A DNA stretch of 64,000 nt from Alphaproteobacteria bacterium (GCA_963665325.3 OZ224045.1:2272001-2336000); one strand, 5' to 3'. Numbered from the stretch's first letter, positions 39,865-53,263 are shown. Translations and numbers: made by a program. The notes: generated from the letters alone by a model not told the origin.

Positions 39865-40040
39865 CCCGCTTGCCCCCATAGACCACAGGTCCCTCCCACG
39901 CGCGGGTCGACGCCAGCCACGTGGAGGGCGAGCCGCCCCGCGCGCGGGGCCCTCCCATGGACTATGGGGACAAGCTACCGCCAAGCCCGTGGTACATTTT
40001 TACGCCGCCGCGCCGGTACATTTTTGCTCCGCCGTTGACA

Positions 40041-43000
40041 GACTACGATTGGTGTACCGAGATGACGGTGGGATACGGAATGATCTTTCCAAATCATTAC
40101 TACGGTTTCACTCCCAATTGGATTGAAGGTGGACATTGGGGAAGACTCAGCAACAGGGATATTGCCTATGAAGATAAAATCTTTAGATTCCAGCGGATAG
40201 GGTTCACCGCAGATGTTTACGGTGGCAGATTGGTATATGTGTACTTCACCAAGAACGAGCAACTGCCGGATGGGATGGTCTTGAATTTGGGCGGGGCCAG
40301 ATTCGTGGCGGATGGCAATAGCTGGTTTGACGATGTGAGTACTGGGAAGCATATCTTTGTTTACCCCAACGGGTTTAGCATGGTTGAAGGACAGAAAATG
40401 ACCCTGAGCGCGAAGTTTCCCGACGACACCAACACGACGGGACAACCATCGATTACGGGCACACCGCAAGTAGGGGAGACCCTGACTGCAAACACTGGCG
40501 ACATTATGGACAGCGATGGCCTGGGCGCATTCAGCTACCAGTGGATCCGGGTGGACGGGCTTACCGAAACGACCATCGCTGGCGCCACCAGTAATACGTA
40601 TGCCCCAATAACGGCCGATGTGGGGAAACGTATCAAGGTAAAGGTCAGCTTTACCGACGGCGACGGTACCGAAGAGTCTGTCACCGGTGACGCTTATCCC
40701 TCAAGAGGTTATCCGTCGAGTGCCATTGGCATCGCAGCGGCAAAGACGGCCTGTCCCGCTGACAATGATTGGTGCGCAGAATTGACCGTGGGATACGGAG
40801 AACACGGTGACCCTGTTGTGGAATTCTACTATGGATTTACACCCTTGAACGTATACAGGTCCGATGGCGGTGGTGGATTTACGGGAACACTTAGTAATAG
40901 GGAACTCAGCTACAATTCCACAAATGTGACCTTTCAAAGGCTCGGGATTACCGATAAGGAATTTACCTTTGTGTACGCAGGTTTTGCAAACAGTGAACGC
41001 GTACCGGATGGCACGGTTTTCAATTACGGCGGGACCACATTCACCGCGGACAGTGAGAACTTTAGTTATGACACGTTCGGCATAGGGCAGTACGTCTTTA
41101 ATCATCGCTCTGGCTTGAGCATGGTTGAAGGCCAGAAGATGACGGTGAGTGTTACGTTCCCCGAGAGTACTAACTCTGCCACGGGCCAACCATCGATCAC
41201 GGGTACGCCGCAGGTAGGCCAGACCTTGAGCGTCAGCACCGCCGACATCGTGGATGCCGACGGCAAGACCAAGGCCGAGAATGATGACGTCGGCTACGCG
41301 TATACCTACCAGTGGCTCCGGCTGGACGAGGGCACGGAGACAGAGATTTCGGATGCGACCGCGGATTCCTACACCCTGAGTGACGACGACGAGGGCGCGA
41401 CGGTCAAGGTCCGGGTGAGCTTTACCGACGATCGGGACAATCCGGAGGGACCGCTCGAGAGCGCGGCCACTGCCACGGTGACGGCGCCGGCGGTGGCGGG
41501 GCTGACGGCCGAGTTCCTGGACGTGCCGGACGAGCACGACAGCTCGAGCGCGTTCACGTTCCGGCTCGCCTTCAGCGAGGACATCCGCAATGGCTACCGC
41601 AGGGTCCGCGACGACCTGCTTTCGACCACCGGCGGAACGGTCACCGGCGCACGCCGCGTGGAAAAGCGCCGCGACCTGTGGGAGATCGAGGTGGAGCCTT
41701 CGGGCAGCGACGCCGTGACGGTGACGCTGGCCGCAGGCGAGGACTGCGCGACGGCGCCCTGCACAAACGACCGCCGCACGCTGTCGGAGGAGATCTCCGC
41801 CACGATCGCGGGCCCGTCCCTGCCCGGGCTCTCGATCGCGGACGCCGAGGTCGAGGAAGGCCCGGGGGCGAAGCTGGCCTTCGCGATCACGCTCGACCGC
41901 GCGGCTTCGGGCACGGTGACCGTGCAGGCCTCGACCTCCGACGGCACGGCGGTGGCGGGCGAGGACTATCGCGCGAAGACCCTGACCAAGACCTTCGCCC
42001 CGGGCGAGACCAGGAAGATTGCGGTGATACGGGTGCTCGAGGACGGCCATGACGACGACGGCGAGACGATGACGCTCACGCTCTCGAACCCGACCGGTGC
42101 CTATATCGCGGACGGCACGGCGACGGGGACCATCACGAACTCGGATCCGCTCCAGAAGATGTGGCTCTCGCGCTTCGGGCGCACTGTGGCCCTCCAGACG
42201 ATCCAGGCTCTGGAGGGGCGCTTCGCCATCGGGTCGGACGCTTCGCCGCGCATGACGATGACGGTGGCAGGCCAGAGCATGGACCTCTCGCGGATCGGCG
42301 ACGACGAGGCGCTGGCGGAGACGATGACGGGGCTTGCGCGGGCGTTCGGCGCGCCGGGTGCGCCGGCGGCGAACCCCGGATCGGGGTCCGGGGCAGGCTC
42401 CGGCGACGACCCGTTCGCGCGGCACGGTATCGGCGGATCCTGGAACGAGGCCGACTCCCCGGCGCCGGCGCAGCCGGTTACGGGGCGCGATCTCCTGCTC
42501 GGGAGTTCGTTCCACTTCACGACCGGCGAGGCGTCGGGCCTGGGGGGCGCGATGACCGGCTGGGGCAAGGTGCTGTCGGGCGGGTCGAGCAGTTCGTTTG
42601 GCGGCGGGCTGTCGTTTACGAGCGAGACGGCGACCGGCGTGCTCGGCATGGACTGGGAGCGGGACAGGCTTCTGGTCGGGGTGGCGCTGTCGCGGAGCGT
42701 CGAGAAGGGTAGCGCGGCGTTCGATCGGACGGGTCTGCAATACGACATTGAGGGCTCGCTCTCGATGGTCACGCCCTATCTGCACGTGCAGGCAGGCGAG
42801 CGGCTGTCGTTCTGGAGCGCGGTCGGTTCGGGCAGCGGCTCGATGTCGCTCTCGCAGGGCGGCGGATGGCAGACGGCGGACATCGCCGTGCAGCTTGCGG
42901 CTGCGGGCGGGCGCGCCGAGCTGCTGCGTCCCGGGGCCGATGGCGGACTTGCGCTGGCGCTGAAGACGGATGCGTTCTTCGTGCGGAGCGAGTCGGCGCG

Positions 43001-43691
43001 GGTATCGACGCCCGGCGTCGGCAATCTCACGGCTGCGACGGGCGATGCAAGCCGCGTGCGGGCCGTATTGGAAGGGTCGCGGGCGTTCGCGCTGGCGGGC
43101 GGCGGGGCGCTGGCGCCGTCGCTGTCGCTCGGGCTGCGCCATGACGGCGGCGATGCGGAGACGGGCTCTGGCGTGGAGGTCGGCGCCGGGCTCACATGGT
43201 CCGCGCCGGCAGCCGGTCTGACCTCGGACCTTCGCCTCTACGGCCTGGCGGCGCATGAGGCGGGCGGCTACGACGAATGGGGAGCGAGCGGTTCGCTGCG
43301 GATGGTTCCGGGTGCGTCGGGCCGCGGGATGTCGCTGTCGATGACGCCGTCATGGGGCGCCCGGGACCAGGCCGGGCGGCTGTGGGATGCGGCGCCCGGC
43401 GGGTTGGCCGGGGACGGCGACAGGGAGCAGCCGGGCATGCGCCTCGACACGGAACTCGGCTATGGCCTGCCCCTGTCGGACGGCCTGACCGGCACGCCGT
43501 ATGCGGGCTTCGGGTTCGGCGAGGCCGGCGCCCGGGACTACCGCCTCGGCTGGCGGCTCGCGTCGGACCGGTTGCAATCGTTCTCTCTGGGCGTCGAGGC
43601 GACCCGCCGCGAGGCCGCGAACGACAACGGATCGGGGGAGGGCGGCAAGCCGGAGCACGGCATGACGCTGCGCGCCGGGCTGCGTTGGTAG
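40041..43691 (+). pseudogene. Autotransporter-like surface protein 3, 5'-truncated by IS21 (type-A barrel intact)
   Basis: No signal peptide; the native sequence starts mid-module (DYDWCTEMTVGYG) right at the IS end. Two AT-rich WC modules, Calx-beta and a barrel ending GLRW follow. Confidence 0.82.
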
Positions 43692-43847: not shown

Positions 43848-43930
43848 ATTGGCACGATGATCGTCTCCGGGGACGGCGGCCGGTATCCCAGGCTGCTGTG
43901 CGGGCGCACGGCGTTGTAGTGGTGTCGCCA
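43846..43930 (-). mobile_element. IS3-family transposase C-terminal remnant
   Basis: The minus strand encodes WRHHYNAVRPHSSLGYRPPSPE. Confidence 0.78.
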
Positions 43931-43965
43931 GGATTCGATCAGAACCTGGGCTTCCTGGTATTATT

Positions 43966-44907
43966 TTAATCCGTAGGATCGATGACCAGCGAAGCGTAGT
44001 CAGATTCGTAGAGTTTTTGGTTTTCGACCACGGCAAGGCGTTGGAGACAATATAGCTGCCAATAACCCTGCCATATCTCGGACCGGTGGTCGAGATGCTC
44101 GACCACCAGTCCGAGACCGCTGGCATCCTCCCATGAGATCATCTGTGAGTGCGACAGCCACCGTGTCGTGTCGAGAAGCTCGCTCGCCGTCGCTGACCAA
44201 TTGCCGTCCGGCCGAATACTGTCCGGCCGAAACATACCAGACCGCAGTAGAGATTCGGCGGACTGACGCGCGCGGTGCCTGGCCGCTTCACACAGTTTGA
44301 TAGTGGCTGGATCGATCTTACCAAGCATGATTTGAGCCGCGAGATTGTTGGGATCGTTCTGGAGTTCCTCCGCGTATGCATCGTAGGCATCAAGGTAGTT
44401 CTGTACGGACCGCCATCCGCCGGGGAGAAATATCTGCGGGTCAATCGGCCCGAGTTCAGACGTGTCGCTCATTACGACACTGTCGGCGCCGAGCACCATG
44501 ACCGTGCCAGCACTTTTGGCAAAATCCGGAACGATGATACGAAACGCTGCTTGCCCAATCCTACTCCTCGTCAATCGGATTATCTTCTCGGCAGCATCGA
44601 CGCTACCCCCTCCGGTATGAAGTAGTAGATCCACGTCTACGTTCGGGGGCACATTATGAAGGAGATCCGCAAATGGCATAGTGTCATCGATGTCGATGTG
44701 ACGGTGAATGCCTGATACGTAGCAAATTAGCCGGCGAGAAGTGCTTTCCTGAATCTCTTTGATGATTGCCTGCCGCTGGTAGCGTGCAGCATTGCTTGCC
44801 TGGAACAACGGTGTTTTAGTCACTGGTAGTACGGCATGCTCGAGGACAGTGTCGGTTTGGTCTGGTAAAAGATCCCCGCCGTTTCCCGGCATAGACGGTT
44901 GTGTCAT
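43966..44907 (-). CDS. SDH-family ClpP-class serine protease
   Basis: DLLLHTGGGSVDAAE, IVPDFAKSAGT, SELGPIDPQ and SH near the C-terminus. Confidence 0.85.
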   Translation of the reverse strand: MTQPSMPGNGGDLLPDQTDTVLEHAVLPVTKTPLFQASNAARYQRQAIIKEIQESTSRRLICYVSGIHRHIDIDDTMPFADLLHNVPPNVDVDLLLHTGGGSVDAAEKIIRLTRSRIGQAAFRIIVPDFAKSAGTVMVLGADSVVMSDTSELGPIDPQIFLPGGWRSVQNYLDAYDAYAEELQNDPNNLAAQIMLGKIDPATIKLCEAARHRARQSAESLLRSGMFRPDSIRPDGNWSATASELLDTTRWLSHSQMISWEDASGLGLVVEHLDHRSEIWQGYWQLYCLQRLAVVENQKLYESDYASLVIDPTD

Positions 44908-45260
44908 TTATTCTCTCTCCGGCTATCGGCAGCCCATTTGATTTTGCCGTTGCGCAAGATGAAGTGGCAGCGGCGTTTAGGGGTGATGTCGTCAATGCTG
45001 GGCCGGATCGACAGTGGCTTCACAGAGTCGACACTCCAGTGGGGGTATCGAGACCTGTCCAAATTCACCATCAAGCGATGCCCTGTTCGGCAGGGACAGT
45101 CGAAAACGACCCAAGTCAGGCGCTCTGGCCTGCCAACGAGGACTACGCCCTTGTCGGGCAACCGATCGGGCACCTCATCGCCAGCGTTGACCAGTCCAAC
45201 GATCCGCCAAGGGCGCCATGGGATTGGTAGCCATCGCCACCAGGCAATCAGCTTCTTCAT
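44904..45260 (-). CDS. DUF6527-like Cys/His protein
   Basis: FDCPCRTGH..VNL....PHW....LSIRPSI.....CHFILRNGKIKW. Confidence 0.75.
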   Translation of the reverse strand: MKKLIAWWRWLPIPWRPWRIVGLVNAGDEVPDRLPDKGVVLVGRPERLTWVVFDCPCRTGHRLMVNLDRSRYPHWSVDSVKPLSIRPSIDDITPKRRCHFILRNGKIKWAADSRRENK

Positions 45261-46639
45261 CCCAACCATGTCTGCTCAAGGAATGGTTCTGTGACGCCGA
45301 GTCCCAGCTTGTCCGCCCCCGGGTGGCAGTAGTGACCGTCGCCTGGGCCCTGGTCGTTGGTGGACACCTCCCGTTCGTGCGTCCGTAGCAGTATCTCCGT
45401 GGGTACAGGCTCAGCGCCGTAGTGAATGAGCCGCTCGAGCAGTTCGCTCACCGCCACTGCCGCCACCTGTGTCGTAAACGCGACGACTGCAGGCTCAGCG
45501 CCTGGCAGTGCAGGGGCGTAGCCCTCATCAGCAAGCCGGCGGTACTCATCTGGGGCGAGCATCTCGGCGGCCGCTCGCTGCAGGTCAATGCGGTTGCGAC
45601 AGACCAGACATGCAGCACCGGGGGCAAGTACCGTCACGCGACCGTCAATTCCGGCGAGTTGGCCCCCAATACCACTGCTCAGCAGCACACCGCAGTCAAT
45701 AACGGGAGTCAAAAGGTACGAAGCGATGCGAGACAGCACGAGCCGACCCGCGTTGTCATCGGTGCAGCCGAAGATAATGTCGGCGTCGAGCAGCAATTTG
45801 GCCGTGGATTCCAACGTTATCTTGGCCTGCGTGGCCATCACTTCGGTATCGGGAGCGATCCGGCTCACGTGGGCGGCACTCAAACTTACTTTCGGCTCGC
45901 CGATGTCTTGGGGGAAGGATCCGTATACGCGGGTGAGGTTACCTTCTGTCAACGTGTCGGGATCAAATAAGTGGAGGTGCCGTACGCCCAGGCGCACGAG
46001 TTGCTCGATAACGGCCGACCCGATACCGCCGCAGCCAACGACGGCGACGCGTAGGTCACCGAGGACCCTTTGGATTTCGCCACCGAAGGCGCGAATATTC
46101 CGATCAAATTGGTTAGAAGATGGCATTGTTTCGTATAGCCAGTTCTGAACGAGCCTAAACCGCCGACCGGTTACCCACAGACGGTCAATCTCGGTGCGTC
46201 TGTTCTCGGATTCGATGTGGCCCGTGAAGCAGAGGCGCGCGCCTGTCCTGGCGACGACAATTGCTCCGTATAAAGAGCTTCCTGCACGGAGCCGGAAGAG
46301 ATCAGCAAGTTCTTCGTCGACTAGCTCATCACGCTTGCTCGGTCTGGGGGATGATTCGTTTCCAGGGTGCGTATGCAGCCAAATTGGGACAGACTGATCG
46401 GCCTCCGCTGCAGCGAGAGCAGGCACGTAGCCTTGGGAGGCAATGCTCATGGCCGTGGCGTTGCGCAGGCGGTAGGCGTCATCCGGTACCCAGTGCAGCT
46501 CACGGGCGAGCAAGCGGACATCTCCGTTAGGCGTCTCCACATGCCGCACCAGCAGAACACCAGCGGTCTCGATGTCAGCGTCGGCCGCCTCCAAGAGTTC
46601 GGCTGCAATCTGGTCCGGAAACACAACCGTGACTGTCAT
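45257..46639 (-). CDS. JAB/MPN metallopeptidase - ThiF/E1 adenylyltransferase fusion
   Basis: N-terminus has ETAG...HTHP..PSKRD (JAMM-like). C-terminus has VAVVGCGGIGS, DPD..TEGNLTR, GCTDDNAGR and ACLVC. Confidence 0.85.
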   Translation of the reverse strand: MTVTVVFPDQIAAELLEAADADIETAGVLLVRHVETPNGDVRLLARELHWVPDDAYRLRNATAMSIASQGYVPALAAAEADQSVPIWLHTHPGNESSPRPSKRDELVDEELADLFRLRAGSSLYGAIVVARTGARLCFTGHIESENRRTEIDRLWVTGRRFRLVQNWLYETMPSSNQFDRNIRAFGGEIQRVLGDLRVAVVGCGGIGSAVIEQLVRLGVRHLHLFDPDTLTEGNLTRVYGSFPQDIGEPKVSLSAAHVSRIAPDTEVMATQAKITLESTAKLLLDADIIFGCTDDNAGRLVLSRIASYLLTPVIDCGVLLSSGIGGQLAGIDGRVTVLAPGAACLVCRNRIDLQRAAAEMLAPDEYRRLADEGYAPALPGAEPAVVAFTTQVAAVAVSELLERLIHYGAEPVPTEILLRTHEREVSTNDQGPGDGHYCHPGADKLGLGVTEPFLEQTWLG

Positions 46640-47028
46640 GGGACCATCTCAGGCACACTGCGTTCCAAGTCTCGCCGGATCAGGGCAAGGAAACTCTCCA
46701 GACCATCGACTCCCGACTGCCACTGCCCGTTGCGGAAGTGTCTCGACCAGCGCTGCCATTTGCGTCCGAGATACGTTCCGACAGCATTGGTGGCCGGCAG
46801 AGCTTGGCCGTTGCTCAGATGAACTGGCGGAGAGAACCACCACATGTCAGGAGGGACATCTGGATAGCCGGGCTTGAGCCGAACCAGAAGGTCCGCCGCA
46901 TCGCGGTTAAACCCACTCGGCAGTGGCCACTGCGGCATTACGACGCATGTTATGCCCACCTCGACCGCGACTTCGTAGCCAGCACACCGTTCGTTCAGAT
47001 AAGTGATGTCGGATTGTGGAAGGGTCAT
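46636..47028 (-). CDS. Prokaryotic E2/UBC-like protein (Prok-E2 family E type)
   Basis: LPSGFN..ADLLVRLKPGYPDVPPDMWW and WQRWSRH..W.SGVDGL. Confidence 0.82.
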   Translation of the reverse strand: MTLPQSDITYLNERCAGYEVAVEVGITCVVMPQWPLPSGFNRDAADLLVRLKPGYPDVPPDMWWFSPPVHLSNGQALPATNAVGTYLGRKWQRWSRHFRNGQWQSGVDGLESFLALIRRDLERSVPEMVP

Positions 47029-47324
47029 TGCAGATGGTGCACCGTTCCGCAGCCGGCGCCAGGATTGATGGTGCCTGGCGCTGTGAAAAAGCGCAGGCCA
47101 TCATAAACCGCGACCGTGTCGTCATCCTTGATTTTGAGGTCAGGGCGCCCGGGAATGACTTGGAAAAGATCGCGATCGGTCGGAATTGGAGTCGGTGGAA
47201 CACGCCGGACTTGAGCTCCGGTGATCTTCTCATCCACCCACTCGTACTGCGCCCGGTCGATCCGGATCGTGAACGCTTTCTGCTCGGGATTGTCCTTGTC
47301 GGGAACTGGATTCTCTGCAGCCAT
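47025..47324 (-). CDS. Multi-ubiquitin-domain-family ubiquitin-like (beta-grasp) protein
   Basis: FTIRID..YE...ITGAQVR...DLF..IPG.PD..I.DDDTV...G.RFFTAPGTINPG. GGAGG RBS precedes ATG 47324. Confidence 0.78.
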   Translation of the reverse strand: MAAENPVPDKDNPEQKAFTIRIDRAQYEWVDEKITGAQVRRVPPTPIPTDRDLFQVIPGRPDLKIKDDDTVAVYDGLRFFTAPGTINPGAGCGTVHHLQ

Positions 47325-47344
47325 GATAGGCCTCCATATCGAAT

Positions 47345-47380
47345 GTGATACCACGATACCATGGTTTGATACCATTTGAC
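47345..47380. promoter_or_regulatory. Putative operator with three GATACCA repeats between the divergent Ubl operon and RHH gene
   Basis: GATACCA at 47347, 47355 and 47368, followed by TTGACA at 47376. Confidence 0.55.
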
Positions 47381-47411
47381 AACCGTCTGCCCCAATTGCA
47401 TCATCGGTAGC

Positions 47412-47627
47412 ATGAAACCATTCAAAGCGATGACGATTCGCCTGTCTGCCGACCAGTCAGATGAGTTGGATATGATCGCCGCTGTCGATGGTCGGCCGAT
47501 TTCGCAGGTAATCCGCTCGGCGATCGCGGGGCACATCGAGGAACGCAAACGCGACGCCTCGTTTCAAGACACCCTCCGTCAACGCATCGAGCGTGCACGG
47601 CGAATGCTGCCAAACGACGAGCAGTAG
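47412..47627 (+). CDS. Ribbon-helix-helix (CopG/Arc-like) regulator
   Basis: KAMTIRLSADQSDELDMIAAVDGRPISQVIRSAI. Confidence 0.78.
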   Translation: MKPFKAMTIRLSADQSDELDMIAAVDGRPISQVIRSAIAGHIEERKRDASFQDTLRQRIERARRMLPNDEQ

Positions 47628-47658: not shown

Positions 47659-48200
47659 GCGGGTTTGCGGGCTCGCTGGCCTGGGACCCGGAGCCTTCGT
47701 CCGACGGGGGTCCGCGGCTCACGCTGAGCCAGACGGTGGGCGGGTCCGCTGCGGGCGCGGTGGAGACGCTGCTGCGGCCGGAGACGGCGCGGGTGCTGGA
47801 GGCGGCGAACGACCCCGGATCGGGGTCCGGGGCAGGCAACAGCGGGCAGAGCCGGCTCGAGGCGCGGCTCGGTTATGGCTGGCCTTCGTTCGGCGGTCGT
47901 TATACGACGGTGCCGGCGATCGGGGTCGGGCTGACGGAGGCAACCCGGGAATATATCCACTCCTGGCGCCTGGCGGAGGCTGGGAGTGCGGGTCTGGTGC
48001 TCGGGCTTGACGTGGAGGCGGTACGGCTGGAGCGCGTGACGGGCGATGCGGCGCCGGAGCACCGGCTGGTGCTGGGGCTCGGCTGGCGGCGCGAGGACGC
48101 CACGTTCGAGTTCCGTCTCGAAGGCTCGCATCTGCAGCCGGTCAGCGGCAACCGGGCGCCCGAACACCGCATCGGCCTTACCCTGACCGCGCGATGGTGA
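47659..48200 (+). pseudogene. Orphan 3' fragment of a type-B barrel
   Basis: RGFAGSLAWDPEP...PEHRIGLTLTARW, a mosaic of the 29.5 kb and 52.7 kb versions. Confidence 0.82.
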
Positions 48201-48439: not shown

Positions 48440-51400
48440 ATGAGGGGTCCGGGACGCTTTGTGTTTTTCGATTCCACACCAGAACGGAAACCGGGAGCCG
48501 GGCGCTCCATAACCCGACTGTGGGTCCGGGCGTTTGCGGCCCCGGTCCTGGCGGCCGGGCTGTCGATGGCATCGGCCGCGTTCTTCGCCACCAGCGCCCA
48601 GGCGCAAACGAGCGATGTCACGCTGGTCTCGAACATCGGCCTATCTACCGCAGGGAACCACGGCCGGACGGAGCCGCTCGCGCAGCGTTTCAACACGGGG
48701 GCGGCGCCCCTTGGGTACATGCTCACGTCGGTTGTGGTCGAGTACATAAACAATGAGGCCGGCAGCGTTTCGGCGAAGGTGTGTACGGTCACCGGCGCCG
48801 ACCAGCCGACCTCCACATGCACGGACTTCACCGCGCCGTCGATACCTGATGGCGGGAACAGAACCTTCACGGCGCCGGGGGACGGCATGTTTCTGGCGCC
48901 GAGCATGAAATACACGGTGGTGCTGACGCCGGACGAGACCAACGCGCTCATCTATTACAGAACGACCGCTAATGACAATGAGGATTCCGGGAAGCTTCCC
49001 GGTTGGAACATCGCGGGCGAATACCGTGTCTACAACGGGACCTCGTGGGTAAGTGACGACGACTCGCACGCACTCAAGATTCGTCTCAGGGGCAGCATTG
49101 TCAGAACCGTCGGCCCCAACGCCAACGCCACGGGGGCGCCGGACATCACGGGCCCGGCGCAGGTCGGCCAGAGGCTGAGAGCCCAAATGGGCGACATCGC
49201 CGACCCGGACGGGCTGCCGTCAGGCACGTTCCCGGACGGCTACTCCTTCCAGTGGATCCGGGTGGACAGCTCGGACAACGAGACGGACATCGCGGGGGCG
49301 ACGTCGGACACCTACACGCCGGTCACGCCCGGCGACCTCGGCCATACGCTCAAGGTGCAGGTGTTCTTCTTTGACGGCGACTCCATGGGCGAGGCGCTGA
49401 CCAGCGCCGCGACCAATCCGGTGGTGCCGGGCGCCGCGCCATGCTCGGCGGAGTCGGTGTGGTGCACGGTGCTGACCTCGGGCACCCTTGCCGCGCTTGG
49501 CGGCGACCCCCCAACAGTCGGCTTCCGCGGAGGCGGCGCGTTCGGCGGCCTCGTCGACGATACCTTCACCTTCGGCGGGACGACCTACTCGGTCACCGAA
49601 CTCACCAGTAACGGCGCTTCTGCCATCAATCTGAATACCGCCCCGCTACTGCCCGCCGACGGCGGCGGGCTGACGCTGCACGTCCAGAAGCTCATGGGCA
49701 CGCTCGATCTGGCGCTGGCCGATGCTTTCGGTTCGCCCCACACAGGAGCCAGTTGGAACTGGAACGGGGTGGTCGGCACCGGCCCCGGCAACCCGGTGCT
49801 GCTGCGCATGTTCCGCCGGATCAACGAGCGCTACCAGGAGGGAACCGACCCCGGCACGCGCGTCACGGTGTGGCTGAGCCCGCCGCCGGGTGTGAGCTTC
49901 GAGGAGCCGACCTACCTGGCGTACGAGGCCGGCGAGGGCGCGCCGGTGACGGTGACGCTGACCCCGGCGCCGACCTCGCCGGTGACGATCCCGATCACGG
50001 CGACCGGCCAGGGCGGGGCGACGTCCGCGGACTGGGACGGCATTCCGTCGATTCTGACCTTCGCCGCGGGCGAGTCGAGCAAGACGTTCATGGTGAAGGC
50101 GGTGGAGGATGCCGCCGCCGAAGAGGGCGAGCGCGTGGAACTCGGGTTCGGGACGCTGCCCACCGGCACCCCGGAGGGCTACCGGACGACAACGGAGGTG
50201 CATTTCTTCGACAGGGCGAGCCCGGGCGATGTTCGCCTGGTGGGAGGGAACGGCCTGCCGACGGCCGACGGCAGGGGCCGCCTGCAGGTGTTCTACCAGA
50301 GGCAGTGGGGCACGGTGTGCGACGACCGCATGGAGGGCAGCTTCAATATCTACGGCAACAGGGGCAACGTGCTTCGGACCGTGCCCAACCACGCGCCGGC
50401 GCTCGCTTGCCAGCTCATGGGCTACGAGACCGGCGAGGACATCCCCCTCGGCCCCTTCCGGAAAAGAAGCAGCGTCCCCGAGCCCATCTGGCTCGACGAC
50501 CTGCGCTGCGAGGAGCGCAACGTGATGATGTACGGCGAGGAGAGCGGCAGGCACTGGACGGGGGAGCTGCCGACACAGCTCGACCACTGCTTCCATGCCG
50601 GGATCGGGCGCGACAACTGCACACACGACGAGGACGTGGCGCTGCAGTGCACCGGCGTGAACCCGAATATCGGGAACCAGGTCGTGGCCGAGCCGCTGCG
50701 GGTGGCGTTTGTGGACGTTCCGAAGACGGGCCATGACGGCGAGACGGCGTTCACGTTCGGGCTCGACTTCAGCGAGGCGGTGGCGATCACGGCCGAGGAC
50801 ATGCGCGACCACGCGCTCGATGTGAGCGGGGCGACGGTGACCTCTGCGGCGCTGGCGGACGGACGCGACGACCTGTGGGAGTTCACGCTCGAGCCCTCGG
50901 GCACCGATAACGTGGTCATCACGGTGGCGGGGAAGGACAGTTGCTCGGACACCGGGGCGCTGTGCACCGCGCTCGGAGCGGGGCTGGAGAACCGGCTTTC
51001 GACGGTGATTCCCTACGTGCCGGCGCCGGCGGAGGCGGGTCTGACGGCGGAGTTCCTGGACGTGCCCGACGAGCATGACGGCTCGAGCGCGTTCACGGTG
51101 CGCCTGGTGTACAGCGAACCGGTGTTCGACGGGACCGAACCGTTCCACAAGAACCGGTCGGTACGCGACGCGCTGTCGGTGAGTGGCGGCAGCGCCACGA
51201 AAGCAGTCCGGGTCGACGCCGACAGCTACGACCAGTGGACGATCACGATCCGTCCGACCGACCACAACCCGGTCACGGTGACACTGCCGGCGGGCGGCGA
51301 CTGCGCGACGGGGCCCTGCACCGACGACGGGCAAACGCTCTCGCAGGAGGTCAGCGCCACCATCGAGGGCCCGCCGGGGCTGTCGGTTGCCGATGCGGAA

Positions 51401-53263
51401 GTCGAGGAAGGCCCGGACGCGAAGCTCGCCTTCGTCATCACACTCGATCGTGCGGTCTCGTGGACGGTGACGGTGCAGGCCTCGACCTCCGACGGCACCG
51501 CGGTGGCGGGCGAGGACTATCGCGCGAAGACCCTGACCAAGACCTTGGCCCCGGGGGAGACGCGGAAGGTTGCGGTGATACGGGTGCTCGACGACAGCCA
51601 CGACGAGGGCACCGAGACGATGACGCTCACGCTCTCGAACCCGGTGGGGGCGTATATCGCGGACGGCGAGGCGGTTGGCACGATCACCAACTCCGACCTG
51701 ATGCCGCAGGCATGGCTGGCGCGCTTCGGGCGCACGGTTGCGGACCAGGTGATCGACGCGGTGGAGGGCCGGATGACGGCGGCGCGGTCACCGGGGACGG
51801 CGGTGACGGTTGCGGGCCGGCGGATCGGGTCCGGGGCAGACGCGGCGGCGCTGGAAGAGGACGAGGCGCGGGCGGGTCTCCAGGCGCTGTCGGACTGGTT
51901 CCGGGGGGTCGAGGAGGAAGAGAACCAGCCGGAGAGCCGAGCGCTGACGAACCGGGACCTGCTGGCGGGCTCGTCGTTCTCGCTCTCTGGCGGCTCGGCG
52001 GAGACCGGCTTTGGAGCCGTGTGGGGCCGGGGTGCGGTCTCGCGCTTTGACGGTCGCGAGGGCGACCTGACGCTGGACGGCGAGGTCGAGAGCGCGCTGC
52101 TGGGGACGGACTATGCGCGGGGCCGGGGGATGCTGGGGCTTGTGCTGTCGCACAGCCGCGGCGAGGGCGGCTACCGGGCGCCGTCGGGCGGCGGGGCGGT
52201 GGAATCGACGCTGACCGGGGTCTATCCCTGGGGCCGCTACGAGGTGAGCGAGCGGCTGTCGGCCTGGGGCCTGGTGGGCTACGGCGCGGGCACGCTGACG
52301 CTGAGGCCGGCAGGCCAGACGGCGATCGAGACCGACATGGACCTTTCGATGGCGGCGGTGGGCGCTCGCGGCGTGCTGGCCCGGGCGCCGGCCAGTGGCG
52401 GCCTCGAGATAGCGGCGACGTCGGATGCGATGGCGGTGCGCACGACCTCGGAGGAGGTGCGGGGGAGCCGCGGCAGCCTTGCGGCCTCGGAGGCCGACGT
52501 GACGCGGTTGCGTGTGGGCCTGGAGGGCGCGTGGCGCGGTCCCGGGACGGAAGGCGGCGGCTCGTTCGTGCCGAGCGTCGAGATCGGGATGCGCCATGAC
52601 GGGGGCGATGCGGAGACGGGGTTCGGCGCGGACATAGGCGCGGGCCTTGCGTGGACGGACCCGGGTCTGGGGATCGAGGCGCAGCTGAGCGCGCGGGGTC
52701 TGCTGACGCATGAGGACGGGGACTTCGACGACCGCGGGTTTGCGGGTTCGCTGGCCTGGGACCCGGAGCCTTCGTCCGAGCGGGGTCCGTCGCTGACGCT
52801 GAGCCAGACGGTGGGCGGGTCCGCGACAGGCGGTGCGGACGCGCTGCTGCGCCCCGATACCGCGCGCCTGTTCGAGGCGGCCAACGAGGACGACGATGAG
52901 CTTGACCGGCGGCGTTTCGAGGCGCGGCTCGGCTATGGCTGGGCGTCCTTCGGCGGTCGCTACACGACGGTGCCGGCGATCGGGGTCGGGCTGACGGAGG
53001 CGGTGCGGGAATATATCCACTCCTGGCGCCTGGTGGAGGCGGGGAGCGCGGGTCTGAAGCTCGGGCTCGACGTGGAGGCGGTCCGGCTGGAGCGCGTGAC
53101 GGGCGATGCGGCGCCGGAGCACCGGCTGGTGCTGGGGCTCGGCTGGCGGCTCGAGGGCGCGCGGGCGGTTGCGTTCGAGACCCGTCTCGAGGCCTCGCGT
53201 CACGATCCCGCCAACGACAATGCCGAGCACCGCATCGGCCTCACGCTGACCGCGCGGTGGTAG
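48440..53263 (+). CDS. Autotransporter-like surface protein 4 (SRCR + Calx-beta, type-B barrel), 1607 aa
   Basis: Signal peptide ..AQAQ, SRCR at ~50231-50650, Calx-beta, MPQAWLARFGRTVADQV linker and a barrel ending TLTARW. Confidence 0.88.
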   Translation: MRGPGRFVFFDSTPERKPGAGRSITRLWVRAFAAPVLAAGLSMASAAFFATSAQAQTSDVTLVSNIGLSTAGNHGRTEPLAQRFNTGAAPLGYMLTSVVVEYINNEAGSVSAKVCTVTGADQPTSTCTDFTAPSIPDGGNRTFTAPGDGMFLAPSMKYTVVLTPDETNALIYYRTTANDNEDSGKLPGWNIAGEYRVYNGTSWVSDDDSHALKIRLRGSIVRTVGPNANATGAPDITGPAQVGQRLRAQMGDIADPDGLPSGTFPDGYSFQWIRVDSSDNETDIAGATSDTYTPVTPGDLGHTLKVQVFFFDGDSMGEALTSAATNPVVPGAAPCSAESVWCTVLTSGTLAALGGDPPTVGFRGGGAFGGLVDDTFTFGGTTYSVTELTSNGASAINLNTAPLLPADGGGLTLHVQKLMGTLDLALADAFGSPHTGASWNWNGVVGTGPGNPVLLRMFRRINERYQEGTDPGTRVTVWLSPPPGVSFEEPTYLAYEAGEGAPVTVTLTPAPTSPVTIPITATGQGGATSADWDGIPSILTFAAGESSKTFMVKAVEDAAAEEGERVELGFGTLPTGTPEGYRTTTEVHFFDRASPGDVRLVGGNGLPTADGRGRLQVFYQRQWGTVCDDRMEGSFNIYGNRGNVLRTVPNHAPALACQLMGYETGEDIPLGPFRKRSSVPEPIWLDDLRCEERNVMMYGEESGRHWTGELPTQLDHCFHAGIGRDNCTHDEDVALQCTGVNPNIGNQVVAEPLRVAFVDVPKTGHDGETAFTFGLDFSEAVAITAEDMRDHALDVSGATVTSAALADGRDDLWEFTLEPSGTDNVVITVAGKDSCSDTGALCTALGAGLENRLSTVIPYVPAPAEAGLTAEFLDVPDEHDGSSAFTVRLVYSEPVFDGTEPFHKNRSVRDALSVSGGSATKAVRVDADSYDQWTITIRPTDHNPVTVTLPAGGDCATGPCTDDGQTLSQEVSATIEGPPGLSVADAEVEEGPDAKLAFVITLDRAVSWTVTVQASTSDGTAVAGEDYRAKTLTKTLAPGETRKVAVIRVLDDSHDEGTETMTLTLSNPVGAYIADGEAVGTITNSDLMPQAWLARFGRTVADQVIDAVEGRMTAARSPGTAVTVAGRRIGSGADAAALEEDEARAGLQALSDWFRGVEEEENQPESRALTNRDLLAGSSFSLSGGSAETGFGAVWGRGAVSRFDGREGDLTLDGEVESALLGTDYARGRGMLGLVLSHSRGEGGYRAPSGGGAVESTLTGVYPWGRYEVSERLSAWGLVGYGAGTLTLRPAGQTAIETDMDLSMAAVGARGVLARAPASGGLEIAATSDAMAVRTTSEEVRGSRGSLAASEADVTRLRVGLEGAWRGPGTEGGGSFVPSVEIGMRHDGGDAETGFGADIGAGLAWTDPGLGIEAQLSARGLLTHEDGDFDDRGFAGSLAWDPEPSSERGPSLTLSQTVGGSATGGADALLRPDTARLFEAANEDDDELDRRRFEARLGYGWASFGGRYTTVPAIGVGLTEAVREYIHSWRLVEAGSAGLKLGLDVEAVRLERVTGDAAPEHRLVLGLGWRLEGARAVAFETRLEASRHDPANDNAEHRIGLTLTARW

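Follow-up and report, generated by a model that had tools for sequence, protein, structure and literature searches.

What task may a ClpP-class serine protease have when its gene closes a bacterial operon for the conjugation of a ubiquitin-like protein (Ubl)? This question is raised by a locus of an Alphaproteobacteria bacterium (GCA_963665325.3 OZ224045.1:2272001-2336000), a stretch of 64,000 nucleotides (nt) here called the window, of which positions 43,966 to 47,627 were analyzed. A preliminary description had recognized five coupled genes encoding a Ubl, an E2, a JAB-E1 fusion, a DUF6527 protein and the protease, and knew of no characterised system with this gene set. The first four genes, however, almost certainly represent a Type I Bub operon, a system described in a recent preprint (PMC11601596, accessible text). 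On balance, the locus is best read as a horizontally acquired six-gene cassette, in which the Bub core is coupled to an exchangeable effector gene under the control of a divergent ribbon-helix-helix (RHH) repressor.

Bub stands for bacterial ubiquitination-like; these operons, earlier called "6E" or "DUF6527" operons, were renamed by Ye, Gong, Chambers & Corbett (bioRxiv 2024, PMC11601596). A Type I operon encodes four components, namely Ubl, E2, JAB-E1 fusion and BubE, the latter being the DUF6527 protein; fused and unfused Ubl/E2 are both labelled Type I in Table S1 of the preprint. According to its authors, the pathway proceeds through oxyesters on a tyrosine of the E1 and a serine of the E2; cleavage of the Ubl precursor is the task of the JAB domain, and BubE is a Ser-His protease which removes conjugates. 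The targets and the biological role of Bub are still to be defined according to the authors.

The conjugation core

The genes of the cassette and the region between its two transcription units are as follows; values in brackets refer to Pfam matches.

47025-47324, minus strand: bubA, Ubl of 99 amino acids (aa) (Multi_ubiq, 4.1e-10)
46636-47028, minus strand: bubB, E2 of 130 aa (Prok-E2_E, 1e-37)
45257-46639, minus strand: bubCD, JAB-E1 fusion of 460 aa (ThiF, 2.6e-37; Prok-JAB, 6.5e-05)
44904-45260, minus strand: bubE, DUF6527 protein of 118 aa (DUF6527, 2.8e-17)
43966-44907, minus strand: fifth gene, SDH-family ClpP-fold serine protease of 313 aa (SDH_protease, PF01972, 1.9e-16)
47325-47411, no strand assigned: divergent promoter and presumed operator region of 87 nt with tandem repeats
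47412-47627 (alternative TTG start at 47376), plus strand: divergent RHH gene, CopG/RelB-like (weak RHH/CopG-type profile matches)

The five minus-strand open reading frames (ORFs) lie in tandem and share an ATGA stop/start overlap at each of the four junctions (47028-47025, 46639-46636, 45260-45257 and 44907-44904). These coordinates, already given in the preliminary description, were confirmed from the ORFs and the sequence. The Ubl was assigned a length of 99 aa because a GGAGG motif precedes the ATG at 47324. The Pfam families and matches to Citrobacter Bub structures in the PDB both confirmed the proposed conjugation operon of Ubl, E2, JAB-E1 and DUF6527 genes; the Prok-JAB match of bubCD scored 23.2 bits, just below the cut-off of 25 bits. 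NCBIfam provided no specific name for the Ubl, the E2, BubE or the protease.

Residue conservation was counted over 61 to 62 orthologs, for the glycine of the Ubl over 48 sequences. BubA consists of a single beta-grasp domain, the INPG sequence of which ends at Gly89, invariant in the 48 sequences, and is followed by a tail of 10 residues. In the AF2 model, the predicted local distance difference test (pLDDT) score of the core was above 90, and the tail was disordered with values below 50. Foldseek retrieved as the best match the Citrobacter multi-ubiquitin protein 9d5a with a root mean square deviation of 1.6 Å over 70 columns; the bacterial multi-ubiquitin structures 8u38 and 9cd2, as well as BubA in 9ea8, were also matched. 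The beta-grasp fold proposed for the 47025-47324 product was thereby borne out. Tails of relatives range from 0 to about 20 residues, and Ubl and E2 are fused in three of 55. As INPG is followed by variable tails in the orthologs, the tail in the window must be trimmed, presumably by the JAB domain. Furthermore, the Ubl architecture varies within the clade: two tandem beta-grasp domains occur in loci L003 and L004, a Ubl-E2 fusion in L036, L045 and L079, and an additional small Ubl-like ORF is located between the RHH gene and the Ubl gene in L043, L049 and L050.

The best PDB sequence match of BubB was Citrobacter BubB (9eae_C, 2.5e-11) with the QRWSRH sequence aligned. Ser95 and His97 of the WQRWSRH motif and Asp61 are kept in at least 97% of 61 sequences, a serine thus occupying the E2 active-site position. 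BubCD matched Citrobacter BubCD best (9ea4_A, 3e-25, residues 24-408); invariant are the JAMM residues E24, H89, H91, S101 and D104, R237 of the E1 and Y374 in the sequence EGYA. Y374 and R237 correspond to the published Y370 and R227 by residue count in the HMMER alignment, an offset of 2 being assumed. In BubE, no fewer than 97% of 62 sequences retain S88, H99, C55 and C98, with S88 and H99 coinciding with the PS...SH positions of canonical DUF6527 proteins; the orthologs keep an N-terminal extension which is hydrophobic and rich in tryptophan. BubE proteins of this clade show the pattern CxC..H...CH, whereas canonical DUF6527 proteins show CxCxC...CxSH. Two of the four canonical cysteines of the C4 zinc finger are retained (C55, C57), and the nearby His61 and Cys98 may replace the other two; hence, the zinc site may be built differently.

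Taken together, a Ubl with terminal Gly, a serine E2 with His and Asp, a JAB-E1 fusion with Arg and Tyr and a DUF6527 protein with Ser and His, which are features of Type I Bub, are each present, and there is hardly any doubt that the first four genes are such a 6E/DUF6527 operon. The DUF6527 product had earlier been suggested to be an E3-like adaptor; this role was rejected because BubE was published as a Ser-His deconjugating protease which removes Ubl conjugates (PMC11601596). A Bil (bacterial ISG15-like) identity of the operon was also rejected, as its JAB domain is fused to a 460-aa E1 with a single ThiF domain and a serine is found at the E2 active-site position.

The fifth gene encodes a ClpP-fold protease

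The product of the fifth gene scored 60.4 bits against PF01972 (cut-off 31.3), with profile positions 68-159 alone being matched, and 79 bits (3.2e-22) against NCBIfam NF047768, which is below the 250-bit cut-off of that model. The AF2 model (pLDDT 93.2, predicted template modelling score 0.88) was found to resemble ClpP (Foldseek E 7.9e-5, TM 0.59 on target; VIA Z 13.9), followed by NfeD-type 1510-N (VIA Z 12.4), SppA (Z 11.8) and then crotonases (Z about 10). Ser132 in the KSAGT sequence, the predicted nucleophile, and the motif SELGPIDPQ are invariant. The structural match to ClpP and the invariant serine agree with the ClpP-class assignment made earlier, and the fifth gene product is a ClpP-fold serine protease of the SDH family. 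About 130 well-conserved residues lie outside the part matched by Pfam.

A database search revealed 1964 homologs at E ≤0.001, the top 120 of them being 60-87% identical to the window protein. Source names, where present, were "hypothetical protein" or "ClpP protease subunit". A large, highly conserved and unstudied protease subfamily is thus brought to light, for which annotation pipelines return "hypothetical protein" and whose members share 60-70% identity among themselves.

Conservation of the protease beside bub genes

A survey of gene neighbourhoods had been named beforehand as a refuting test for the coupling of protease and conjugation genes, and it was carried out by two routes. Route 1 was a search by the protease with one genome per species, in which the best 80 of 497 stretches encoding relatives were analyzed. 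Genes for JAB-E1 and DUF6527 were located directly upstream on the same strand in 61 of these 80 loci; 58 contained all five genes and three were cut by contig ends. The 61 Bub-linked loci belong to eight named phyla, namely Pseudomonadota (21), Actinomycetota (15), Acidobacteriota (9), Chloroflexota (7), Gemmatimonadota (3), Planctomycetota (2), Spirochaetota (2) and Ca. Eiseniibacteriota (1), with one locus unplaced. Bradyrhizobium sp. BR 10303 (L030), listed as Type I Bub in Table S1 of PMC11601596, is among the organisms in which the protease adjoins the operon.

Within these best 80, every protease relative with at least 45% identity was Bub-linked, and the 19 unlinked ones were 35-44% identical. 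The latter were found in unrelated contexts (integrase, insertion sequence (IS) elements, one SMODS gene, housekeeping genes), three of them being cut upstream and therefore unjudgeable; no common partner gene was detected among 55 of the 135 listed ORFs, those nearest to the protease, which were scanned. In a protease tree (FastTree, 67 rows, two of them unlabelled, after rows with odd lengths or internal stops had been dropped), a single branch with a support of 100 separated 53 Bub-linked from 12 stand-alone proteases. Clustering of all ORFs of the 80 loci yielded no family beyond the six of the cassette that was common to more than 10 loci, hence the cassette has sharp borders.

The gap between bubE and the protease gene has a median of -4 nt in the relatives, with values ≤0 in 41 of 59 and ≤30 nt in 55 of 59 when start codons were picked by a heuristic. 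Retention of this small gap indicates that the tight coupling of the DUF6527 and protease genes is not due to chance. Furthermore, E1 and protease co-diverge, as their identities to the window proteins are correlated (Spearman 0.74, n=59).

Route 2 was an independent search by E1 in metagenome contigs, comprising the best 80 of 393 relatives with E1 proteins 51-73% identical to that of the window. At least 800 nt past the E1 gene were available in 58 loci; the protease was present in 49 and absent from nine of them. The start of a protease gene was visible in four shorter loci, and 18 loci had no room for a judgement. The protease is conserved beside homologous operons by either route, so that the refuting condition does not apply, and it is very probably an integral, co-evolving part of the cassette.

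Replacement of the protease by a dCTP deaminase

Six of the nine protease-less loci (L108, L113, L114, L132, L155 and L178) carry another gene directly after bubE on the same strand, with a gap of -4 to 76 nt. In all six cases, the encoded protein is 519-554 aa long and has a cytidine/dCMP deaminase domain at its C-terminus (Pfam). Three of these deaminases were scanned with PADLOC, and all three matched the anti-phage dCTP deaminase model PDLC02373 (1e-136 to 1e-138). The E1 proteins of the six operons are 55-60% identical to the E1 of the window; the regulator encoded upstream is an XRE-type helix-turn-helix (HTH) protein with a Panacea domain, a LexA/S24-like protein or an HTH protein, and no RHH gene is found there. 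Altogether, 55 of the 58 judgeable cores contain one of two fifth genes, either protease or deaminase.

An E1 tree (FastTree, 130 sequences) placed the six deaminase operons nested within the protease clade. A subset of 28 rows analyzed with IQ-TREE united the six deaminase operons and eight protease operons in one clade with a support of 97. The best tree of this subset requires four changes of the fifth gene, and the well-supported branches force at least two; a tree holding the six deaminase operons together, corresponding to a single origin, was rejected by the approximately unbiased (AU) test (p 0.022). The nesting and the forced changes therefore indicate at least two exchanges of the fifth gene between enzymes that are unrelated to each other. 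Since the protease is conserved and yet replaced by a dCTP deaminase in nested relatives, we are inclined to see in the fifth gene position a slot for exchangeable output enzymes (effectors) within an RHH-controlled cassette of the defence type.

The remaining three loci, with neither protease nor deaminase, include one with an HTH gene and an M78 peptidase gene. Near the bubE end, ORFs of 284 aa (L109, 5863-6714, plus strand) and 444 aa (L162/L163, 5359-6690, minus strand) without Pfam match were found, which could be further alternative fifth genes.

The RHH gene and the promoter region

The profile scores of the divergent RHH gene were low: Pfam DUF6290 (3.4e-4) and RHH_1 (2.3e-3) remained below their cut-offs, and the RelB-like antitoxin family of NCBIfam was matched with 8.7e-5. 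An ortholog occupies the same divergent position in 52 of the 61 Bub and protease loci. It encodes the presumed repressor of the five genes.

On the operon strand, the region 47325-47411 contains in this order TTGTCAA, a spacer of about 15 nt, three tandem TGGTATC-type repeats, GGAGG and the ATG of the Ubl gene. The tandem repeats at 47346-47374 read TGATACCA on the plus strand, and an 8-nt repeat occurs in four copies within the region. Among 52 orthologous intergenic regions from many phyla, including the window, TGGTAT was present in 45 and TGTCAA in 41. Conservation of these motifs across phyla suggests that the promoter and the presumed RHH operator travel with the cassette. It is unusual that an entire regulatory region moves horizontally together with its cassette.

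RHH gene and protease gene co-vary, although they are located at opposite ends of the cassette: the RHH gene is absent from all nine protease-less loci of route 2. This co-variation may be a lineage effect or may reflect a functional tie, e.g., the repressor being a substrate of the protease. In a deeper branch of protease operons (L059, L069, L076, L078-L080), an HTH and M78-peptidase pair of the CapH/CapP kind replaces the RHH gene; this group was assigned by ORF clustering, with Pfam confirmation for L059. Additionally, a gene of the Fic/DOC family and a small upstream ORF are located just past the RHH gene in a subset of cassettes, namely L030 (3439-4014, minus strand), L101 (2612-3196) and about 10 alphaproteobacterial loci. 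They may constitute a toxin-antitoxin pair travelling with the island.

Island edges and horizontal transfer

The cassette is flanked by two remnants.

43862-43955, no strand assigned: 3'-end remnant of an IS3-family transposase gene at the left island edge (80-83% nucleotide identity)
47736-48200, plus strand: C-terminal remnant of a surface protein at the right island edge (71% identity, E 3e-65)

The GC content is 0.52-0.62 over 44000-47499 as compared to 0.67-0.75 in both flanks, in agreement with the AT-rich block containing a divergent RHH gene that had been noticed earlier. Of the IS6 and IS3 scars which the preliminary description had placed at its borders, only the latter could be recovered: about 93 nt, starting about 12 nt past the protease stop codon, are about 80-83% identical to the 3' ends of plasmid-borne IS3 family transposase genes. 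No IS6 scar was seen among 12 listed of 69 matching records, and the short ORFs have no Pfam match. The remnant at the right edge comprises 154 aa and matches residues 1458-1607 of the 1607-aa product of 48440-53263. As it is the tail of a surface protein, the island apparently replaced most of a paralog.

Giant surface proteins with Calx-beta and Ig-like repeats, which are paralogs of each other, are encoded on both sides of the island, one of 1256 aa (39921-43691) and one of 1607 aa (48440-53263; both plus strand). An SRCR-like domain occurs in one copy; the C-terminal ends are alike, and the 154-aa tail of a third copy, cut by the Bub island, lies in between.

The low GC content, the IS3 scar and the disrupted host gene are signs of mobility within the window, and the island is horizontally acquired. 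Seven plasmid records contain the protease with 46-48% identity over most of the protein. On Phenylobacterium plasmid pA, the PGAP annotation gives the order CopG-family RHH, multiubiquitin domain protein, E2/UBC, ThiF, DUF6527 and "hypothetical protein". Distant protease relatives (about 30-37% identity over long matches) were detected at 28 loci on viral contigs (L182-L209), none of which contained Bub genes. These stand-alone relatives might be head-maturation-type or other proteases.

Discussion

A model for the cassette

The conservation and the exchange of the fifth gene lead us to favor, on the whole, the view that the protease is the effector or output enzyme of the cassette and that its action is coupled to tagging. 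The purpose of the cassette would, with somewhat more confidence, be anti-phage defence. According to this model, the RHH protein would bind to the tandem TGGTATC repeats overlapping the promoter and would repress the operon as long as no signal of stress or infection is received. In BubCD, the JAB domain would then trim the 10-residue tail of BubA and expose Gly89, as suggested by the cleavage of the Citrobacter BubAB precursor. By analogy to Citrobacter and E. coli Bub, from which the chemistry is taken and with which the window shares the conserved residues alone, the E1 would adenylate Gly89, and the Ubl would be carried on Tyr374, passed on to the E2, where Ser95 would hold it as an oxyester, and finally attached to lysines of targets; BubE would remove it by means of Ser88 and His99. 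The predicted protease would provide the output. Its coupling to conjugation could most simply be achieved by tagging of the effector or its partner, comparable to the priming of the CD-NTase by Cap2/Cap3 in Type II CBASS (cyclic oligonucleotide-based antiphage signalling system). As a result, the phage would be damaged or the infected cell shut down.

Other explanations of the fifth gene

The preliminary description had considered a tag-and-degrade function, in which proteins marked with Ubl would be recognised by the protease through this mark and then degraded or clipped. This would amount to a minimal counterpart of ubiquitin-directed proteolysis that needs no ATPase. In favor of such a function, the protease gene is strictly inherited together with the conjugation genes and translationally coupled to them, Ser132 and SELGPIDPQ are invariant, and the approximately 130 conserved residues beyond the Pfam match could hold a recognition surface. 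In nested relatives, however, the slot is filled by a dCTP deaminase, an enzyme unable to act on tagged proteins. This swap makes tag and degrade less likely, and for this reason we favor an effector slot instead. The clustering of the 80 loci furthermore revealed no unfoldase gene conserved in the cassette, and Gong et al. (10.1101/2024.11.21.623966, accessible text) hold that Ubl conjugation in bacteria probably does not serve as a signal for degradation. We consider this explanation improbable. Another explanation, to which we assign a similarly low likelihood, is that the protease and the deaminase are independent passengers, i.e., self-sufficient defence or stress proteins which share the regulated promoter of Bub. 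Stand-alone relatives of the protease do occur in various surroundings, which are often mobile, and also on viral contigs. dCTP deaminase has been reported to defend as a single gene. A mere passenger is difficult to reconcile with the finding that the 61 protease relatives of at least 45% identity are all Bub-linked and form one clade; the presence of one of two fifth genes in 55 of 58 judgeable cores, the conserved ATGA-type overlaps and the co-divergence of E1 and protease also argue against it.

Even less probable is a housekeeping function, with the protease acting as a third peptidase for processing or deconjugation of the Ubl, or cleaving the RHH repressor as CapP cleaves CapH. Most Ubls bear a tail which needs to be trimmed, and the RHH gene, found in 52 of the 61 protease loci, is missing together with the protease from all nine protease-less loci. 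Yet processing and deconjugation are already provided by JAB and BubE, both with intact catalytic residues; the protease is retained where one Ubl ends at the terminal Gly and where several have tails of 1-3 residues; six protease loci contain the HTH and M78 peptidase pair and no RHH gene; and a deaminase is no substitute for a processing enzyme.

Several points weigh against the effector model as well. Tagging, activation and activity of the protease are predictions. Stand-alone dCTP deaminases and distant SDH proteases exist, and the fifth gene might accordingly work alone and merely share the promoter. No domain common to protease and deaminase, which could serve for docking, was detected by comparison of their profiles (hhalign, probability 0.2%), a result that also fits the passenger explanation. 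The trees were calculated with FastTree or with IQ-TREE in "quick" mode, and the deaminase group was named after the first tree had been seen. In the PADLOC check of the locus, which had been proposed beforehand, the E1 was recovered by generic E1-E2 matches alone; there was no model for the Ubl, the E2, BubE or the protease. Protection against phages has not been shown for any Bub operon, and a general stress role is allowed according to the accessible text of a later paper (EMBO J 2026, PMC13373217). Finally, 401 genomes of the window's phylum were sampled, and 18 of them had a DUF6527 match, in 20 places; a protease gene within 1.5 kb was found at none of the 19 DUF6527 loci other than that of the window. 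An E1 was encoded in 10 of these 19 loci (3-kb loci) and was 27-32% identical to that of the window. Since the protease was present at the window's locus alone, it marks one Bub clade and not Bub in general.

Implications

The core of this clade is obligatorily tied to an output enzyme, and in some operons a dCTP deaminase known from anti-phage defence takes the place of this enzyme; on genomic grounds, this argues directly for a role of at least this Bub clade in defence against phages or stress. The protease is, furthermore, a concrete and testable candidate for what Bub tagging acts on or through. A more tentative and rather doubtful idea is that the Bub core serves as a portable control module, which switches effectors of the operon on or off by tagging them or their inhibitors, and into which different effectors, the ClpP-fold protease or the dCTP deaminase, would have been inserted repeatedly; in a bolder form, the protease would degrade Ubl-tagged proteins without the need for an ATPase. 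If true, the bolder form would represent ATPase-free ubiquitin-directed proteolysis in bacteria.

Comparison with known systems

With ClpP, NfeD-type 1510-N and SppA, the window protease shares the fold (Foldseek TM 0.59-0.67 on target) and the nucleophilic serine in a G-x-S/A-x-S-A-G-type turn. The identity to these proteins is, however, just 11-18%, and the window protease has an extra conserved C-terminal part. In contrast to ClpP, no AAA+ partner gene is conserved near proteases of the window type in the 80 clustered loci.

In Bil, a set of Ubl, E1, E2 and JAB genes is likewise found in mobile defence contexts. Bil differs in that its JAB domain forms a protein of its own, its E1 combines tandem adenylation domains with a catalytic-Cys domain, its E2 is a Cys enzyme, and DUF6527 is lacking (PMC11601596). 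Type II CBASS, consisting of the Cap2 E2-E1 fusion and the JAB protein Cap3, resembles the cassette in having conjugation and deconjugation enzymes beside an output enzyme, and conjugation primes the pathway (PMC11601596). The window, however, contains no CD-NTase and uses a free Ubl; Ser/Tyr oxyesters replace the cysteine thioester, and a link between tagging and effector is here a proposal. The anti-phage dCTP deaminase (PDLC02373) occupies the same position after bubE in six of 58 judgeable close relatives; its fold and chemistry are unrelated to those of the protease, and it is absent from the window.

The closest known system is Type I Bub of Citrobacter sp. RHBSTW-00271, with which the window shares the beta-grasp Ubl with terminal Gly, the Ser-x-His and Asp of the E2, the JAB-E1 fusion with a crossover-loop Tyr, the DUF6527 Ser-His protease and the gene order. 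The cassette of the window differs in that a translationally coupled gene for a ClpP-fold protease is added, that Ubl and E2 are unfused and that the Ubl has a single beta-grasp domain. Its regulator is an RHH protein instead of CapW, CapH with CapP or CapK with CapS, the last of which was added as a third regulator type by the same laboratory (PMC13373217). The zinc-site residues of BubE are altered, and the E1 is about 30% identical to other sampled Bub E1 proteins.

The terms "ClpP" and "SDH" do not occur in the main text and supplements of the Bub preprint (PMC11601596) as far as accessible, and the version published in Nat Struct Mol Biol (2026) may differ; "deaminase" and "effector" do not occur in the accessible main text, and none of the columns of Table S1 is devoted to a fifth gene. 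The accessible part of Iyer et al. 2006 (PMC1779556) makes no mention of ClpP. No description of a gene set of Bub and protease was found among the literature matches listed, to which the final Bub paper (PMC12885553) may add. Hence, the four-gene core of the cassette is already known, and the protease-bearing, RHH-controlled clade and its effector swap are new.

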